Source: Limisphaerales bacterium
GTDB taxonomy: Bacteria > Verrucomicrobiota > Verrucomicrobiia > Limisphaerales > UBA11358
Assembly (NCBI GenBank): GCA_037200545.1
Contig: JBBCGE010000004.1
Span: 310,970 to 374,969, forward strand
DNA: 64,000 bases
Direction: 5' to 3'
Shown: one piece after another, positions 33,899-41,200 of the stretch
Numbering within the stretch: position 1 is the first letter of the stretch
How the letters are laid out: each line of letters starts with the position of its first letter
Notes under the pieces: generated by a model
Seen by the model: only the letters and a program-made list of their open reading frames with translations
Database searches by the model: none
Told to the model about the DNA's origin: nothing
Program-made: the position numbers and the translations under genes

Positions 33899-34945
33899 TT
33901 AAGCCGCTACGGCGCTGGCAATCGGCACGATCACGCCAGCGGCGTTTGCTTCGGCCAATTTCTTTTCGTAGTCCTCAAGGGCGGGAATAAACACTTGGGC
34001 GTTTTTGGAATAGGCGCGGTGAATGGCGCGGCTGTTCTGGCCCAAGTTCTCCATTGCGAAGCGTTCCGGCATTCCTGCGCTCTTGGCGCGTTCCGCCCAA
34101 GCGTAACGGTAGCTGTGAAGCGTAATACCTTTAATCTTCAAGCGGCGGCAGGCGCGGGCAAATTCGGTTGCCCGGTGCGCCTCCCGCATGGGTTTCAGCT
34201 TTGGAAATAGCGGGCCGGTAACGGGCAGGGAGCGCAACACCTTCTCAAGTGCCTCCCCAATGCGGATGATGGAAGCGGAGCCGGTCTTGTGCCGGTGAAA
34301 GCTGACAACACGTGTGCGCCAGTCAATATCCTCGGCAGCAATCGCGGCCACGTCGGACTGTGCGCCGCCGATATGCCAGCAACATTCGTAAAACGCCCGG
34401 CGTTCCGCGTTCTGCTCGGCGGTGACAATCGCGTGATGTTCAGTCGGTGTGATGGCGCGTTTTTCCTTAAACCGGACTTTCGGCCATTGCTTCTTGGGCA
34501 GAATCGGCCAGTGAAGCCAGTTCATGTCTAGCGCGAAGTTGTGAATCCGGCGCAAGAAAACATTCGTTGCGACGGTGCCGATTTCCAAGACTTTCAGCAA
34601 GTGCATGGACTGCGTTTCCAGAATCGGCAGATTGCGGATGAGGTCAAAGGCCGGGTCTTTCATCGCGCGTTCGTGGCGGATGCGCGTCGAGCCGGCCTTG
34701 GTCTTGGTCATTTCATCCATCGGCGTCTGCCAAGTCCGCTTGGCGGTTTCCGGGTCGGTGGCCGTCAAATACGTTCGGGCAATCTGGCGGTTTAACACCG
34801 GCTGGCGAAAGGATTCGTTTTTGGCGTTTAGAAGCGTTACGGCTTCGCTTTCGTCTTTCGTCCGCAAGCTGTGCTGCTTGCGGGTCACGGTGTCCTCGCT
34901 GTAATAAACGCCCGCTCGCCGAAACATGATGAATCGAGGTTTCAT
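33899..34945 (-). CDS. Tyrosine recombinase/integrase (inner tRNA-Cys element)
   Basis: TLHSYRY...NLGQ...HRAY; 186 bp from the tRNA-Cys 3' end. Confidence 0.88.
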   Translation of the reverse strand: MKPRFIMFRRAGVYYSEDTVTRKQHSLRTKDESEAVTLLNAKNESFRQPVLNRQIARTYLTATDPETAKRTWQTPMDEMTKTKAGSTRIRHERAMKDPAFDLIRNLPILETQSMHLLKVLEIGTVATNVFLRRIHNFALDMNWLHWPILPKKQWPKVRFKEKRAITPTEHHAIVTAEQNAERRAFYECCWHIGGAQSDVAAIAAEDIDWRTRVVSFHRHKTGSASIIRIGEALEKVLRSLPVTGPLFPKLKPMREAHRATEFARACRRLKIKGITLHSYRYAWAERAKSAGMPERFAMENLGQNSRAIHRAYSKNAQVFIPALEDYEKKLAEANAAGVIVPIASAVAA

Positions 34946-35131: not shown

Positions 35132-35205
35132 TGGAGGCGAGGGTCGGAATCGAACCGACGATGCAGCTTTTGCAGAGCCGTGCCTTACCACTTGGCTACC
35201 CCGCC
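35132..35205 (-). tRNA. tRNA-Cys(GCA)
   Basis: GGCGGGGTAGCCAAGTGGTAAGGCACGGCTCT-GCA-AAAGCTGCATCGTCGGTTCGATTCCGACCCTCGCCTCCA; cloverleaf with encoded CCA. Confidence 0.97.
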
Positions 35206-36249: not shown

Positions 36250-37383
36250 TTATTTGGAATTAAATCCCAACTTCTCCCGTTGTTTCCAAAGTTCCTGCGG
36301 TTTGAAAATTCCCACGGGCGTGATGATGCCGGTGATCAATTCCGCCGGCGTCACGTCAAAGCTTGGATTGCGCGCGCCGCTCGTGGGATTCGCCACGCGA
36401 ACATATTCACGTTTTCTCATCTTCCATCTTCCTCCTTCCATCTGCTTCCCGGTCACACCCCACGCACCCAAAACCTCGCTCTCGCTTCGCTCTTCAATCG
36501 GGATGTCGAAGCCGCGTTTCAGATTCCAGTCAATCGTCGAGATCGGAATGGCGACATAGAAGGGAATTTTGTGGCGCGCAGCCAGAACGGCCTTGGTGTA
36601 GGTGCCGATCTTGTTGGCGACTTCGCCGGTGCGGCCGAGCGTGCGGTCGCTGCCGACGATGACCAGATCAATCTCGCCGCGCTGCATCAGATGGCCCGCG
36701 GCGTTGTCGGCGATGATCTGATGCGAAATGTTTTGCTGCGCCAGTTCCCACGCGGTGAGCGTCGCGCCCTGGGAACGCGGGCGGGTTTCATCGCAGAAGA
36801 CGTGGAATTTTTTGCCCTGCGCCTGCGCGACATACATCGGCGCGGTGGCGCTGCCGATGTCCACGAACGCCAGCCAGCCGGCATTGCAATGCGTGAGAAT
36901 CTTCATGCCGTTGCGGATCAGCTTCGCGCCGTGCCGGCCGATCTCCTCACAATGTTGCACGTTTTCGCGGGCAAATTCCTCGGCGGCGGCAAGCGCGAGG
37001 AACTGGCGTTCTGCCACTGTTTGTCCGGGAGTCATGTGATGGCGAATGTCATTCATCGCGTTGACGGGATCCACGGCGGTGGGCCGCGCATTTTTCAAAA
37101 CCTGATAAACCGTCTCGACGTGAGCGGAGAATTTCTTCAAATCGTTTCCACGAAAGGCGAACGCGCCTTGCGCCAAGCCGTAAGCGGCGGTGGCACCGAT
37201 GGCTCCGGCACCGCGCACGATCATGTCGGTGATGGCGGCGGCGGTTTCCCGGAAATTTTTGGTGGCGACGATTTTAAATTCGTGCGGGAGCAGCCGCTGT
37301 TCAATGAGCAAGACAGCGTTCTGCGTTCGGTCAAAGGTGACGGTGCGGTAATGCTGGGTGCGGCCCCGGACGGTGACGTTCAT
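36250..37383 (-). CDS. mtnA: S-methyl-5-thioribose-1-phosphate isomerase
   Basis: MIVRGAGAIG, RPTAV, THCNAG, DETRP..QG, NKIGTY, NPSFDVTP. Confidence 0.95.
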   Translation of the reverse strand: MNVTVRGRTQHYRTVTFDRTQNAVLLIEQRLLPHEFKIVATKNFRETAAAITDMIVRGAGAIGATAAYGLAQGAFAFRGNDLKKFSAHVETVYQVLKNARPTAVDPVNAMNDIRHHMTPGQTVAERQFLALAAAEEFARENVQHCEEIGRHGAKLIRNGMKILTHCNAGWLAFVDIGSATAPMYVAQAQGKKFHVFCDETRPRSQGATLTAWELAQQNISHQIIADNAAGHLMQRGEIDLVIVGSDRTLGRTGEVANKIGTYTKAVLAARHKIPFYVAIPISTIDWNLKRGFDIPIEERSESEVLGAWGVTGKQMEGGRWKMRKREYVRVANPTSGARNPSFDVTPAELITGIITPVGIFKPQELWKQREKLGFNSK

Positions 37384-37392
37384 ATATCAGGT

Positions 37393-37758
37393 TTATCCCA
37401 ACGGCAAAATACGGGCACGCGCCCGGGATTCATCAAGAACGATCAACGCGCCCTTTTCCAGTTCGGATTCAAATTGTCGGAGCGCACCAGCCACAAGTTT
37501 TCCAACGGCAACCGGCGTCACATCCTGGGTGCGGATTTGAATCACACTTGGCCCTTCCGCCTGCGATAATGCCAGCATGGAGCCGAAATCCAGATCATGC
37601 GTGAAGACGACATGGCCGTTCTGCCTTGCCCAAGCCATGATTTCGGAATCGGCGGCGCGATGGTTACCGACCTTTGACCAGTGAACCGCCTCCCAGCCCG
37701 CCTGTTTGAGAACCGCCACCCATTCAGGTGAAAGATTCATGTCCACCAGCAGCTTCAT
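37393..37758 (-). CDS. DUF5615 PIN-like (VapC45-type) toxin
   Basis: MKLLVDMNLS, D.EI..WA, THDLDFG. Confidence 0.88.
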   Translation of the reverse strand: MKLLVDMNLSPEWVAVLKQAGWEAVHWSKVGNHRAADSEIMAWARQNGHVVFTHDLDFGSMLALSQAEGPSVIQIRTQDVTPVAVGKLVAGALRQFESELEKGALIVLDESRARARILPLG

Positions 37759-37985
37759 GCTGGCTGGAGCGGCATTTCAATCTCTTCCGCCCGCCACGCG
37801 GCATACTTCAACGCCTGGGTGATGTCCTCCGCTTCAAGATATGGATACAACTTCAAAATTTCCGCAACCGCATGGCCGCTGGCGACCAATCCGGTGATGG
37901 TGCCCGCCGTGACGCGCAACCCGCGGATGCAGGCCCGCCCGCCCATGACGTTCGGGTTGAAAGTAATTCGATCCAGCGCTTTCAT
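37755..37985 (-). CDS. DUF433 antitoxin
   Basis: RITFNPNVMGGRACIRGLRV...YPYLEAEDI.QAL.YAA. Confidence 0.9.
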   Translation of the reverse strand: MKALDRITFNPNVMGGRACIRGLRVTAGTITGLVASGHAVAEILKLYPYLEAEDITQALKYAAWRAEEIEMPLQPA

Positions 37986-38039
37986 GGCCGCAAGATAACA
38001 CAGCCCAATCCTGACCGGCAAGTTGTGAAACACTGAATG

Positions 38040-38107
38040 GCGTTCGGCGCGCGGTCAAAAGTGAAGGTGCAGAAAGCTAGGTGCGGCCCCGGACGGTGAC
38101 GTTCATA
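38040..38107 (-). pseudogene. Relic duplicate of the mtnA 5' end
   Basis: Imperfect copy of 37316-37384 with a 28-bp identical core (38080-38107 = 37357-37384). Confidence 0.85.
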
Positions 38108-38513
38108 AATCAACTAACGTCCCAACGCGTTCTTTTCTTGGAAATAAAAAACTTCCAATCAGTGCGCGCCATTTTCTTTTTGAAAGCGAATCCATCACGT
38201 CATTCATAACGTGCAAACACCTCACACCATTTTGTTCCGCTAGTTTCCATTTGCGTCTGTCGTTCAAACTCTGCTTCTCGTCAAAATGATGCGCGCCACC
38301 CGGCTCAATTATCGCTACGGGCTTGTTGCCCCGAAAAACAACTAAATCAGCAGAGCCGTAACGCCAAATATGTTTGAGTCCACTGTTCTCCGGTTCATTG
38401 AAGACTTGTTTCAGCGGAACTTCCAATTTAACACAGAAGAGGCGCGACCACTTTTGCTCAATGTAAGCTTTGATGGTCTCCGCCTCTTCTGTGACTTTCA
38501 AATCATCTAACAT
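38103..38513 (-). CDS. PD-(D/E)XK / Vsr-DUF2726-like nuclease-fold protein
   Basis: EVPL..V...ADLVV...VAIIEPGG.HH...ND..K...GV..L.V pattern; ATG directly after the terminator U-tract. Confidence 0.7.
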   Translation of the reverse strand: MLDDLKVTEEAETIKAYIEQKWSRLFCVKLEVPLKQVFNEPENSGLKHIWRYGSADLVVFRGNKPVAIIEPGGAHHFDEKQSLNDRRKWKLAEQNGVRCLHVMNDVMDSLSKRKWRALIGSFLFPRKERVGTLVDL

Positions 38514-38540
38514 AAAAAACAGCGGGTCATTGCCCGCTGT
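38514..38540 (-). terminator. Intrinsic terminator closing the pentamer array
   Basis: Minus strand ACAGCGGG-caatga-CCCGCTGT followed by a T run. Confidence 0.8.
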
Positions 38541-38613
38541 GCCTGACCGCACCAAGCCTAACCATGCCACACCCTACCTCACCGAACCGAACCCAACCGA
38601 ACCACGCCCCACC
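38539..38613 (-). ncRNA. Putative guide RNA: array of 15 GGY-NN pentamers (VIPR-like)
   Basis: Plus-strand RCC at every fifth base from 38541 to 38611 with no exception; NN variable; starts 9 nt after the RAMP-like stop codon and ends in a terminator. Confidence 0.8.
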
Positions 38614-38622
38614 ATAAATTAT

Positions 38623-39144
38623 TTAAGCAAAGTTGTGAACTTCAAATCTTCCAAACTTGGGACGGTAATCTCCAATTCCTTTACTTTTTCCTGCCTCTTC
38701 CAAAATTTGCTTCAGTGTCTCTTTCTTTATCCGCGTTTCGTCAAAGTTGACGGTAAACTCAATCTCCCACTTGTTAAAACGCGGTCTGGATTTGACAATG
38801 CGCTGGCGTTGAATGACAGCGGGGCGGCGGTCAATTTCGTCGTATGTCTTTTTGCCCATAGGAATCTCTTCTGGCTCAACAAAAACAGATGAAAGAATCG
38901 TCGCCTTCAAACTAGCCTTACCTTTACCTTTGAATTCTTTAGCCGTTTCACGCAAGGTCGCCTCAATCCAACTGGAAGGAACAAAACAACCTTGGTCATT
39001 TCGATACACCGCCTTTTCAGCATCCTCCTTCGAGTCAAATTTTTGATCTCGTCGTTTGGCTTTTTCCTCATCTTCCTGCTCCATTGGAAAACGGTTGTGA
39101 AGCAAAGGAGCAACGCCATGAATTTTTACTTCAACGCTTTGCAT
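38623..39144 (-). CDS. Stand-alone Cas7/RAMP-like protein (Vipr-like)
   Basis: N-terminal strand V.I.G..PLL, helix motif VPSSWIEATL, R..RP thumb, C-terminal glycine-rich loop GIGDYRPKFGRF. Confidence 0.75.
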   Translation of the reverse strand: MQSVEVKIHGVAPLLHNRFPMEQEDEEKAKRRDQKFDSKEDAEKAVYRNDQGCFVPSSWIEATLRETAKEFKGKGKASLKATILSSVFVEPEEIPMGKKTYDEIDRRPAVIQRQRIVKSRPRFNKWEIEFTVNFDETRIKKETLKQILEEAGKSKGIGDYRPKFGRFEVHNFA

Positions 39145-39149
39145 ATCGA

Positions 39150-39416
39150 TTAAGCATCTACACAAATTTCTTCATTAAGCAACCACTCCGGGGCTTTCCA
39201 ATTAGATGGCCTCTGATCGTCGAACATCAACTGAATAAATTGTAGCGCAGCTTGGTAGGCAGATAGAACTTCTGGGATTTTCGGCGCGACCTCGTATGCG
39301 TGGCGCAGTTTTTCCATAGCCCACGCCATTCCCTGTCCGGGCGTGCAATTCCATTTACTGTAACGAACAATCACAGCGGTTTGAATGTATTGAATGAACT
39401 CGGATTGCTTATCCAT
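39150..39416 (-). CDS. Hypothetical 88-aa protein, first gene of the AT-rich cassette
   Basis: Ends 5 nt before the RAMP-like ATG; AT-rich upstream region. Confidence 0.6.
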   Translation of the reverse strand: MDKQSEFIQYIQTAVIVRYSKWNCTPGQGMAWAMEKLRHAYEVAPKIPEVLSAYQAALQFIQLMFDDQRPSNWKAPEWLLNEEICVDA

Positions 39417-39468
39417 AATGCTATTAAGATTATTTTAGTATTTTGTCATCGTTGAACCAAATCGTTGT

Positions 39469-39885
39469 TCAACCAGCCTTTTTCTTCAGCCGTTGAATCT
39501 TTTCCTTGAGAGCTTTGTAGGCGGGCTGGGCGCGGAGTTTTTTCAGATCGGGATCCTTGGCGAGCCAGGCGAAATCGCGATAGCCGAGGCTCAACGCCTT
39601 TTCCAGGGCCGCCACGGCGCGGTCGAACTGGCCGGTGAGCGAGTAGCTGCACGCGAGATTGTAAAAGACGAGCGAGTTCTGCGGTTCGAGACTCGCGAGG
39701 CGTTCGTCCACCTGCAGGCCCTCCGGGAAACGACCGCGCTGCGTGTAGTCATCGCCGAGCAACTGGAGCGCGTCCACGTAGTCGGGGTCGCGGCGGACGA
39801 TGCCCTCCATGAACTCGATCCGCGTATCGAGGTCACGCTGGAGAGCGCGGCTCATCTTTTTTCGGGCGGTGCTTTTTACCGGCAT
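39469..39885 (-). CDS. TPR-repeat protein
   Basis: YNLACSYSL...A...L..A...GY.D......DPDL..LR. Confidence 0.85.
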   Translation of the reverse strand: MPVKSTARKKMSRALQRDLDTRIEFMEGIVRRDPDYVDALQLLGDDYTQRGRFPEGLQVDERLASLEPQNSLVFYNLACSYSLTGQFDRAVAALEKALSLGYRDFAWLAKDPDLKKLRAQPAYKALKEKIQRLKKKAG

Positions 39886-39960
39886 ACAACACACGCAGTT
39901 TTTCCAAGTAGCGCTGCCAAGTCAAGCGCAGGCGGGCTTAATAATTTTGGTGGCATGCGT

Positions 39961-40114
39961 TGGGAGCGCGCCCGCCCCGGGCGCAGCCGACGACGCCCTC
40001 GTCGTCGGCCTTGGCGCTGCGCGTGAATTTGGCAATGATAAATGGTTCTGGATTCTCGCGAAGAGTTCGTCGCGAGGGCGCGATGAACTACAGCCGAGGC
40101 GGCTGTGCTCCCCA
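39961..40114. repeat. REPIN/MITE-like palindromic element (TGGGAGCGC...GCTCCCCA family)
   Basis: Terminal inverted repeats with internal GCCCTCG/CGAGGGC stems; related copies at 41256-41393 and 48724-48872. Confidence 0.75.
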
Positions 40115-40192
40115 AGCCAAGAAGCACCTGCAAAAATTTTATGGAATCTACGGATGCATTGCGCCAAAGTTGACCCGAATTTTCAACAAATC

Positions 40193-41200
40193 ATGAAATG
40201 TTTTGTCACCGGCGCCTCTGGTTTCATTGGCGCAAATCTTGTTCACGAACTCGTCACGCGCGGGCATGACGTGAAGGTTTTGTTGCGGCCCGGGAGCGAT
40301 GTGCGCGGATTGGGAGGGACGAAATTCGAGCGCGTGACCGGCGATCTGCTTGACCGCAAGGCGCTCGAAACCAGATTGGAAAAGTGCGACTGGTGCTTTC
40401 ACGTCGCGGCGAGCTACCAACTGTGGATGCGCGATTACGCACCGATGTATGCGGCAAATGTTGAAGGCACGCGCCATGTGCTGGAAGCGGCGGGCAAGGT
40501 CGGATGCTCTCGAATCGTTTATACCAGCACGGTCGGCTGCATCGGTTTGCCAAAAGCAGTGAACTGTAAATTCACACCTACGGACGAGCAGAACATCGCC
40601 ACCGAGGCGCAGATGACGAATCACTACAAGCGCTCAAAATTTCAGGCCGAACAGGTTGCGTTGGAACTGGCGCGGAAAGGGCTGCCCGTCGTCATCGTTA
40701 ATCCGTCCGCACCCGTTGGCCCGCGCGATGTGAAACCGACACCCACGGGTCAAGTCATCGTGGACTTTCTGAATCGCAAACTGCCGGCTTATCTCGATAC
40801 GGGTTTGAACTGGGTTCACGTCCGCAATGTGGCCATTGGTCACATTCTTGCAGCGGAAAAGGGACGCGTGGGCGAACGCTACATTCTCGGCCATGCGGAC
40901 GGCAACTGGACCATGCAGGAGATGCTGCACGTGCTGGAAGAGATCACCGGCCTGCCCGCGCCGCGCATGAAAGTGCCGCATTGGGTCGCACTGGCCACCG
41001 CGCACGTGGATGAAACCATTTCCAGTTTTACCGGCAAGCCGCCGAAAGCGCCGCTGGCCGGCGTGCGCATGGCGAAATATAAAATGTGGTTCAATCCGGC
41101 CAAGGCCATCCGCGAACTCGGCCTGCCACAGACGCCGCCAAAGCAGGCGCTCGCCGACGCGGTCGAATGGTTTCGGGAGCATGGTTACGTTCAAAAATAA
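40193..41200 (+). CDS. hpnA: Hopanoid-associated NAD-dependent sugar epimerase
   Basis: VTGASGFIG, HVAA.Y.LW, YKRSK, GPRDVKPTPTG. Confidence 0.85.
   Translation: MKCFVTGASGFIGANLVHELVTRGHDVKVLLRPGSDVRGLGGTKFERVTGDLLDRKALETRLEKCDWCFHVAASYQLWMRDYAPMYAANVEGTRHVLEAAGKVGCSRIVYTSTVGCIGLPKAVNCKFTPTDEQNIATEAQMTNHYKRSKFQAEQVALELARKGLPVVIVNPSAPVGPRDVKPTPTGQVIVDFLNRKLPAYLDTGLNWVHVRNVAIGHILAAEKGRVGERYILGHADGNWTMQEMLHVLEEITGLPAPRMKVPHWVALATAHVDETISSFTGKPPKAPLAGVRMAKYKMWFNPAKAIRELGLPQTPPKQALADAVEWFREHGYVQK

Follow-up and report, generated by a model that had tools for sequence, protein, structure and literature searches.

VIPR systems, named for Viral Interference Programmable Repeat, have been described in three 2026 bioRxiv preprints (10.64898/2026.04.26.720920, 10.64898/2026.04.26.720927, 10.64898/2026.10.15.759431), from which the following outline is drawn. 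Their central component, Vipr, is a minimal RAMP protein with a G-loop and a thumb (10.64898/2026.04.26.720920, 10.64898/2026.04.26.720927), which has been assigned to a RAMP clade outside Cas5, Cas6 and Cas7 (10.64898/2026.04.26.720920). It is guided by vrRNAs of ~100 nt, composed of 9-16 YNNGG repeats and an invariable structured tail, and is accompanied by a small accessory gene, vap (10.64898/2026.04.26.720920). One protomer occupies each repeat, where it holds GGY and presents the NN dinucleotide, and the target is double-stranded DNA (dsDNA), every third base of which is skipped (10.64898/2026.04.26.720920, 10.64898/2026.04.26.720927). The skipped base generally falls at a wobble position, so the system defeats synonymous escape (10.64898/2026.04.26.720920, 10.64898/2026.10.15.759431). 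Natural targets are found on both strands, either of which supports silencing, and most VIPRs are viral or proviral (10.64898/2026.04.26.720920). Among the seven types recognized, III and V are chromosomal, enriched in defense islands, associated with nucleases and directed against viruses, while the only VIPR activity demonstrated is transcriptional silencing, enhanced by vap1 (10.64898/2026.04.26.720920). The vap domains named in the figure legends consulted are WH-like, HTH-like and HNH, and neither "DUF2726" nor "capsid" appears in the main text of that preprint (10.64898/2026.04.26.720920). Here we analyze a 64,000-nucleotide stretch of the genome of a Limisphaerales bacterium (hereafter the window), in which positions 38103-39144 of the minus strand form what we judge, with a probability of roughly 87%, to be a chromosomal three-part VIPR module consisting of vipr, one ~100-nt vrRNA and vap, and serving in capsid-targeted defense against phages. 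What is new here is the predicted target of the guide, a capsid gene in uncultured phages.

Read along the minus strand, the locus presents a 173-aa open reading frame (ORF), a 9-nt gap, 15 GGYNN units, an 8-bp hairpin, a T-run and the ATG (38513) of the next ORF. The vipr gene, the guide, the handle and vap are thus all packed into ~1.05 kb, with spacers of 9 nt and 5 nt, as follows.

38623-39144, minus strand: vipr, predicted to encode a RAMP-type guide-binding protein of 173 aa; ATG at 39144, stop TAA at 38625-38623.
38539-38613, minus strand: vrRNA repeat tract of 15 GGYNN units; units 1-14 carry programmable NN, and unit 15 (GGCAC) belongs to the handle.
38519-38540, minus strand: 3' handle, a G+C-rich, conserved and covarying 8-bp stem (ACAGCGGG/CCCGCUGU) with a 6-nt loop.
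38514-38518, minus strand: U-run behind the handle that may be a partial intrinsic terminator; it abuts the ATG of vap and is terminator-like in a scan.
38103-38513, minus strand: vap candidate of 136 aa, DUF2726-like, a putative PD-(D/E)xK-type nuclease, kept beside vipr in relatives.

This region was first singled out by an initial annotation made from the letters of the window and their ORFs, which reported 15 GGYNN units behind the 173-aa ORF; all 15 units indeed display GG followed by a pyrimidine, and they begin 9 nt past the stop codon. Scanned with a regular expression, the window yields this 15-unit run and no second one; the opposite strand has at most 3 units in a row, and in 50 mononucleotide shuffles of the window the longest GGYNN run reaches 3-4 units. 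It is also the only run of at least 5 units in the whole 3.75-Mb, seven-contig assembly, which contains one vipr gene. The same annotation had pointed to a VIPR system made of a Vipr protein and a GGY/NN RNA. That system exists in print, and the locus shows every one of its testable defining features, while the prediction that one protomer would sit on each GGY and display NN as a discontinuous guide agrees, by analogy, with the published VIPR architecture.

Comparison of the 173-aa protein with PDB sequences identifies it as Vipr, a homologue of the solved SUSP1 Vipr in which the residues predicted to hold GGY are kept. A phmmer search returned a single match, chain D of entry 36pp ('SUSP1 Vipr protein'; E=1.4e-15, 61 bits), spanning residues 28-170 of the query and including the G-loop. 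In SUSP1 Vipr, R138 in the thumb and D177, W178 and R179 in the G-loop are the residues that bind G1 and G2 and make up the Y3 pocket (10.64898/2026.04.26.720927). These four residues align to R120, D159, Y160 and R161 of the protein described here; across 26 aligned homologues R120, D159 and R161 are invariant and Y160 is nearly so, the substitution of W by Y exchanging one aromatic residue for another. The protein motifs singled out by the initial annotation also stood up in these 26 homologues, since G10, P13, L14 and L15 near the N terminus are nearly invariant and, in the terminal glycine-rich loop, G158, D159, R161, P162, F164, G165, R166 and F167 are invariant. Altogether 187 Vipr homologues were found, the few named ones being hypothetical proteins of Omnitrophota and Planctomycetota metagenome-assembled genomes (MAGs), and among PHROGs the protein matches phrog_4652, a family of unknown function, with E=1.1e-27. 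The family name given initially, Cas7, had to be abandoned: no Pfam family matches at E<=1, and the published work places Vipr in a separate RAMP lineage. A Cas7/Csm3/Csf2-type identity was consequently rejected, there being no match in Pfam, NCBIfam or PADLOC and no cas neighbors.

The arrays that accompany Vipr in other genomes and viruses show that the GGYNN tract is a standing partner of the gene. We fetched related loci from genomes (2), IMG/VR (80) and metagenomes (80), which amounted to 150 unique loci, and scored an array wherever at least 5 good GGY units were found on the same strand between -1400 and +700 nt of the vipr stop codon. Such a same-strand array accompanies vipr in 123 of the 150 loci, none having one on the opposite strand in that span, and over the 1.01 Mb of these loci array totals are 333 on the same strand versus 9 on the opposite one. 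When Vipr identity is at least 60%, all loci have an array (26/26), which lies directly downstream in 25. The remaining 27 of the 150 loci are arrayless by this finder, some of them having short flanks; some VIPR types use other repeat consensus sequences (10.64898/2026.04.26.720920).

The composition of the repeats separates a rigid frame from a free dinucleotide. In a unit logo built from 43 tail-anchored vrRNAs (the one in the window and 42 others, two duplicate loci being left out), the first two positions are G in 86% and 93% of units and the third is a pyrimidine in 98%, while positions 4 and 5 carry 0.05 and 0.06 bit, respectively. All 43 vrRNAs are distinct in sequence, with a median of 15 units, and together they use all 16 NN dinucleotides. 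Identity between guides is 0.268 at NN (666 pairs), which corresponds to chance, compared with 0.76 at GGY. The four closest loci examined, whose Vipr proteins are 80-88% identical, illustrate the same point, with 23-25 of 27 nt identical in the handle and 114-130 of 150 nt identical at the 5' end of vap, but an NN identity of only 0.15-0.32. Since the scaffold is conserved and NN identity is at chance, guides turn over completely. The initial annotation had suggested looking in homologues for pentamer arrays with different NN strings, and this is what is seen across the related loci. Its view that the tract is not a slipped microsatellite is borne out as well, because units vary while register and GGY are kept across the 43 vrRNAs.

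The hairpin that closes the array is a handle of the RNA and may also be a terminator. Arrays of the close clade finish with GG(C/T/A)AC, followed by the rest of the stem ACAGCGGG / CCCGCUGU, and the last unit reads GG[CTA]AC in 38 of the 43 vrRNAs, 'AC' being part of the stem. This conservation of the final 'AC' as stem base implies that unit 15 belongs to the handle and that 14 dinucleotides are programmable, not 15 as had been assumed at the outset. The hairpin and U-tract noted initially are therefore present, although the hairpin does not merely follow the array, since its first two stem bases are the 'AC' of unit 15. In 27 tails, which were chosen by a hairpin finder so that complete pairing is partly by construction, 216 of 216 cells are paired and 3 of the 8 pairs display a compensatory change. 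A covariance model built from these tails found 45 matches in 1.07 Mb, all 45 on the vipr strand and 18 of them outside the seed, and a single match both in the window and in the whole genome. Among 36 distinct model-aligned tails, in an alignment fitted to the covariance model and thus favoring structure, 98.6% of cells are paired and 6 of the 8 pairs show double changes, compared with 30-61% paired cells in slid controls. When a 112-nt stretch is folded, the handle is a robust prediction and the repeat tract is no more structured than shuffles (z=-0.06); no Rfam family is found in 37000-40500 at E<=1. A terminator scan reports the hairpin and T-run as a terminator-like site, in line with the terminator proposed initially. 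However, in several relatives A-rich sequence replaces the T-run after the stem, which indicates that the hairpin is conserved as an RNA element and termination is not. Two relatives have a second vrRNA handle beyond vap, ~1.2-1.4 kb from vipr (L091:7772-7813 and L092:2271-2312).

The guide leads to a phage capsid gene. A pattern made of all 15 NN had no match in the window (<=3 mismatches) or in IMG/VR and was discarded; the search came back empty because the 15th NN (AC) belongs to the handle, and the 14 remaining NN gave the target. We searched IMG/VR with three 8-dinucleotide seeds taken from these 14 NN under the rule of a 1-nt skip. Seven contigs were matched by all three seeds in register and two more by two seeds. 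Over its whole length, the guide scores 28/28 in L166, L172, L173, L175, L176, L180 and L181, and 27/28 in L174 and L177, while the best other seed match scores 23/28. The 16-base seeds gave 9, 13 and 17 matches outside the target group, which fits ~5-6e10 effective positions, and by our own arithmetic the chance expectation of a 28/28 match is ~1e-6. We take the capsid site matched under the 1-nt-skip rule to be, as judged from sequence, the natural target of the guide. A binomial estimate for a 14-NN guide and ~1.2e11 positions gives ~43 chance matches at >=23/28 (~80%) and 0.15 at >=25/28, meaning that an NN-match threshold of 80% is permissive for short guides at the scale of IMG/VR, where ~25-26/28 would be needed for significance.

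The matched site, at 4723-4763 in L173, corresponds to codons 14-27 of a 338-342-aa ORF, which encode W-A-N-Y-I-T-L-S-D-E-H-E-T-P, and to codons 30-43 in L175, where the ORF was called with 360 aa. It lies 40-80 nt into the ORF, directly downstream of a scaffold-like ORF. The product is an SU10-type major capsid protein, with a match to Pfam SU10_MCP (E=1.8e-30) and to a PHROG annotated 'major head protein'. In orientation the guide corresponds to the template strand of this gene, being complementary to its coding strand and to its mRNA. Identity among the nine capsid genes is 56-100% at the protein level and 62-100% at the DNA level; some pairs do not differ where they overlap, leaving perhaps six or seven lineages. 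Among the nine contigs, 2 of the 28 columns facing NN vary, versus 8 of the 13 skip columns, and the skipped bases are at wobble positions, which agrees with the published statement that the skip rule defeats synonymous escape. Moreover, the site is among the most constant of the gene. In the six full-length capsid genes, 42% of codon position-1/2 columns vary, and when these are counted per 14-codon window the target has 2 variable columns compared with a median of 12, a value as low being reached in only 11 of 294 windows; the eight lowest windows printed all fall within one overlapping block.

The host shows no sign of being targeted by its own guide. Its genome gives a best score of 20/28 (20/30 with 15 NN), a guide in shuffled order scoring 19, and with skips of 0, 2 and 3 nothing in the host genome rises above chance except the self match at skip 3. 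The G+C content is 58-61% in the phage contigs versus 54-55% in the host. Short DNA matches of 21-32 nt between host and phage were considered as spacers and set aside, the five inspected out of ten, three between L166 and C7 and two between L177 and C1, being shared heptamer microsatellites. These are of the form (ACTCCGC)n and (GATGGAA)n and are found at C7:59032-59063 and C1:252134-252164 in the host contigs, and at L166:1398-1439 and L177:8298-8329, respectively, in the phage contigs. They are at most a weak compositional hint of a common lineage.

The third component of the module is the 136-aa ORF, which removes vipr from the category of stand-alone genes in which the initial annotation had placed it. 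As determined by tblastn, this ORF has matches beside vipr in 39 other loci, where it either comes after the vrRNA(s) or abuts the start of vipr, and in a Planctomycetota MAG vipr and vap have adjacent locus tags. It is conserved next to vipr, and we regard it as the vap gene of this clade, probably with a nuclease role, as judged from the following comparisons. In an alignment of 29 copies, D56, E70, G72, G73, H76, Q81, N84, R87 and K88 are invariant. (Two further relatives, L092:955-1305 and L006:6534-6932, each have a vap with an internal stop, and these were left out of the alignment.) Among atlas look-alikes of vap, DUF2726 clusters account for 21 of 30 matches, with a score of 0.94, and the precomputed PF10881 (DUF2726) domain is found on 1 of the 120 vap homologues listed. 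When vap was compared by hhalign with six true DUF2726 domains of the same order, the resulting alignment paired the invariant D, E and H of vap with those of DUF2726. The latter is a domain that we take to have a PD-(D/E)xK nuclease fold of the Vsr/DUF559-like kind, with D ... E-x-D/G-G-x-x-H as catalytic core.

We envision the following mode of action. By analogy with the work on SUSP1 and Pseudomonas fulva, one Vipr protomer would bind each repeat, sequestering GGY and presenting NN, and the resulting filament would base-pair, within phage dsDNA, with the capsid gene's coding strand to form a gapped R-loop triplex. The DUF2726-like Vap might then cut the bound phage DNA, a step for which there is less support; at a minimum, the filament would block transcription of late genes. 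The module would thereby endow its host, which would have gained it horizontally, with a hard-wired, single-guide defense against phages.

Several observations weigh against this scheme, most of them concerning either the nuclease or the reach of the target. PF10881 matches 26 of the 29 vap members, yet all under the cut-off (best E=0.0014), and the hhalign comparison above has a probability of 8% (E=0.0042). A profile search of vap against PDB gives only a chance lectin match (E=0.32), and vap has no match in PADLOC or NCBIfam. As for Vipr, H17 of the SUSP1 protein, which contacts G1, is outside the phmmer alignment, which begins at residue 28, and it is from sequence that both folds, RAMP for Vipr and nuclease for Vap, are predicted. 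On the side of the target, 36 other guides of at least 9 units have no match in the nine target contigs (the same guides give chance-level scores against 4.87 Mb of sequence), and three guides of relatives, searched in IMG/VR through their middle 10 NN as 20-base gapped patterns, were matched in 0 of 3 cases. A search for the capsid gene came back empty in the host assembly (80% complete); of the 201 genomes of the order that were sampled, one had it, with an identity of 27%, and none of 50,697 deposited phage genomes matches the capsid protein. Two further points, which concern the transcripts of the locus, are that one metatranscriptome run (X1) covers 29 of the 30 bins of a 2.8-kb stretch at similar depth, so that DNA carry-over is possible, and that the RNA runs consist of assembled contigs, from which ends, strand and level are not readable.

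The alternative that survives best is possible although we would not favor it: a VIPR limited to repression, in which the filament is a roadblock silencing the late (capsid) operon, the mode of the characterized type II systems, and Vap is a DNA-binding or stabilizing accessory without nuclease activity. Silencing enhanced by vap1 is, after all, the sole VIPR activity demonstrated (10.64898/2026.04.26.720920), the position of the site at the very beginning of the capsid ORF, just after the scaffold-like ORF, suits a roadblock, and the nuclease assignment of Vap is below threshold. Against this stand the invariant D56, E70, H76 and K88 core of Vap, which lines up with D, E and H, themselves invariant in true DUF2726 domains, the predicted nucleases carried by the chromosomal defense-island types (10.64898/2026.04.26.720920), and the consideration that silencing the capsid gene alone would not rescue an infected cell. 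We retain the nuclease as the probable role of Vap within the capsid-targeting module. The broader proposition that the whole clade constitutes a hard-wired, minimal form of RNA-guided DNA-cutting immunity, consisting of a single RAMP, a single Vsr/DUF2726-like nuclease and a single guide, excised within the operon, and in which guides are replaced wholesale and independently of Cas1-Cas2, seems doubtful at present. Directed acquisition or selection of guides, not drift, is nevertheless suggested by the combination of a conserved scaffold with chance-level NN and a guide placed on the most conserved block of the capsid gene.

The genomic surroundings bear on how the module arrived. Three further features belong to the cassette or to its immediate neighborhood.

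38618-38645, minus strand: candidate sigma-70-like promoter, TTGAAG - 16 nt - AATAAT, with 5 nt between its end and the array; a weak candidate.
39150-39416, minus strand: ORF of 88 aa directly upstream of vipr, within the inserted segment and possibly outside the system; matched only in its own genome.
37384-39468, no strand assigned: insertion of 2,085 bp in the interval between mtnA and a TPR gene, relative to same-genus genomes, holding a DUF5615/PIN_10 and DUF433 pair (37393-38033) and the VIPR cassette.

One named MtnA homologue, with 86% identity, carries the label Verrucomicrobiae, which makes a verrucomicrobial host probable. Of the 201 genomes of the order that were sampled, only the one studied here has Vipr, and of three genomes of the same genus none does. 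In two genomes of that genus, mtnA and the TPR gene are separated by ~234 bp (G135) and ~79 bp (G180), versus 2,085 bp here. Pfam identifies in the insert a DUF5615/PIN_10 and DUF433 pair of toxin-antitoxin type. The 5' end of mtnA and a few upstream bases recur as a 73-nt copy, in a direct repeat (37316-37389 and 38040-38112, 81-93% identical) that brackets this pair only. The islet would thus have been built in at least two events, with the VIPR cassette proper (~38113-39440) as a separate arrival. For the 88-aa ORF, the TPR gene and the DUF433/PIN pair, tblastn gave no match outside their own genome among the loci compared. The 88-aa ORF has no match in Pfam, PHROG, PADLOC or NCBIfam and no homologue in the other loci, and its atlas score of 0.84 is at chance level and uninformative. 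On the far side of mtnA, a phage-type integrase (33899-34945) lies 3' of a tRNA-Cys gene (35132-35205); in G180, near the matches to the tRNA and mtnA, there is a DNA match of 67% identity to this integrase, and we believe that it looks like the junction of an old resident island unrelated to the VIPR cassette.

These features make it improbable that the cassette is a mobile-element weapon, that is, the remnant of a phage or satellite which used VIPR against competitors as the SUSP1 and P. fulva clades do. Such an origin would fit with the fact that most VIPRs are viral or proviral (10.64898/2026.04.26.720920), with the 169 relatives found on IMG/VR contigs, and with the cassette being an insertion that has a phage-type integrase 3.2 kb away, beside tRNA-Cys. 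However, the inserted 2.1 kb contains no phage structural, replication or mobility gene, which also upholds the initial description of a minimal chromosomal cassette without phage genes, the integrase is beyond the tRNA and mtnA and has its counterpart in G180, and the neighbors are housekeeping genes and the toxin-antitoxin-type pair. A chromosomal module of the host thus remains the preferred reading. Regarding its spread, an 84%-identical vipr-vrRNA-vap module occurs on a 2,011-bp contig (L001) labelled as a Bifidobacteriaceae MAG, and other relatives are labelled Elusimicrobia, Omnitrophota and Planctomycetota; these scattered labels reflect either wide horizontal spread or mis-binned short contigs.

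The initial annotation also stated that cas genes and CRISPR arrays are absent from the window. The only Cas1/Cas2 matches of the genome are indeed on another contig (C3), which supports the statement for these two families, the other cas families not having been scanned window-wide. At ~403455-407956, C3 has a small, possibly decaying type II-like CRISPR locus with an integrase nearby. It consists of a mini-array of 3 repeats of 36 nt with two spacers, cas2, a fragment of Cas1 (model positions 194-253, in a 96-aa frame) and a 732-aa ORF with HNH_4 and a weak match to the Cas9 alpha-lobe. The two spacers of the mini-array have no match in the sequences compared.

Evidence of expression comes from assembled metatranscriptomes. 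The locus is present in two runs of one study. In X1, one contig from the RNA library spans 38509-39508 with 0 mismatches, covering the handle, the array, vipr and the upstream ORF, which is weak evidence of transcription. Other RNA runs cover fewer bins, 12/30 for X2 and 2/30 for X3. The gap between X1 contigs at 38482-38508 was considered as an RNA end and rejected, since gaps between contigs are no evidence of an end. The third X1 record stops matching at 38509 and continues with 75 letters unlike the window, a junction that may be a chimeric contig or a variant. The promoter-like site has 9 of 12 consensus matches, and 4 sites of this kind were found versus a mean of 1.8 in shuffles, which gives it little weight. 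Since the array is preceded by 9 nt and the handle followed by 5 nt, the most likely source of the vrRNA is either the transcript of the operon or a promoter within the 3' end of vipr, and the RNA would then be trimmed to the part protected by the protein.

That the complex would bind or block capsid mRNA and leave DNA alone is slightly less probable again than a mobile-element origin. The vrRNA is complementary to capsid mRNA, and the VIPR guide-target duplex can accommodate an RNA target (10.64898/2026.04.26.720927), both of which are compatible with RNA targeting. Yet single-stranded RNA gives mostly incomplete, 7-subunit filaments (66%) and no triplex, the latter being considered essential (10.64898/2026.04.26.720927), natural targets are on both strands and either silences (10.64898/2026.04.26.720920), and a DNase-like partner fits DNA targeting.

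Hardly credible is the notion that there is no guide function at all, the GGYNN tract being a 3' untranslated region of vipr or a microsatellite, the hairpin only a terminator and the capsid match a coincidence: the hairpin and T-run do score as an intrinsic terminator, the tract folds like its shuffles, and no discrete RNA is seen from metatranscriptome contigs, which cannot show ends, but register and GGY are kept while units differ in 43 vrRNAs, the stem covaries and is conserved even without the T-run, a perfect match in seven contigs faces an expectation of about one in a million while three 20-base control patterns matched nothing, and the homologous SUSP1 RNA is experimentally a guide (10.64898/2026.04.26.720920, 10.64898/2026.04.26.720927).

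The capsid-targeting module is of interest on several counts. It is a clean, minimal and chromosomal example of VIPR, and the recognition from raw sequence of a system described only in 2026 supports scanning for GGY/NN arrays as a means of finding VIPR loci. Its predicted target can be named, 14 of the most conserved codons of a capsid gene with every wobble base skipped, which would make it an independent, non-enterobacterial case of the skip rule defeating synonymous escape. It also provides a concrete guide-target pair for asking whether a DUF2726-like Vap turns VIPR binding into DNA cleavage.

How does the locus compare with known systems? The most distant likeness is to the Cas7 backbone of Cascade and Csm/Cmr, with which VIPR shares a RAMP polymer formed on a guide RNA at a fixed period and a base-flipping thumb (10.64898/2026.04.26.720927). 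In contrast to Cas7, which has a 6-nt period and one flipped base, the period of VIPR is 5 nt, each subunit displacing three bases of the guide and one of the target, and the module described here has no CRISPR array, no spacer acquisition, no other cas genes and no Pfam match to Cas7. Much closer is type II VIPR, known from Escherichia phage SUSP1 and a prophage of P. fulva (PDB 36pp). The two share a homologous Vipr with the same thumb and G-loop contacts to GGY, a ~100-nt RNA built from 9-16 GGY/NN pentamers and ending in a structured 3' tail, a small accessory gene, and a target read with a 1-nt skip whose skipped bases are at wobble positions of the coding sequence. They differ in location, a chromosomal 2.1-kb islet here versus phages in type II, and in organization, with one vrRNA between vipr and vap here and arrays of several in type II. 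The tail is a clade-specific 8-bp hairpin that absorbs the last repeat, whereas that of SUSP1 is a pseudoknot. The accessory is a DUF2726-like putative nuclease, in contrast to the predicted DNA-binding protein of type II, and the predicted target is a phage capsid gene, whereas type II is aimed at a satellite or at a prophage regulator. With types III and V the locus has in common its cellular location beside a defense-type module, a predicted enzyme-like vap, a single vrRNA (as in some III/V) and a guide that matches viral contigs in IMG/VR, with no self-target here. VIPR and its chromosomal, nuclease-associated and virus-targeting types are thus already in print, and the locus is a further member of VIPR. 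As relatives of its Vipr listed in NR (P0023, P0027) are 71-72% identical and would have been within reach of the PSI-BLAST searches of the authors of VIPR, we rate it as an addition to the system that they described.

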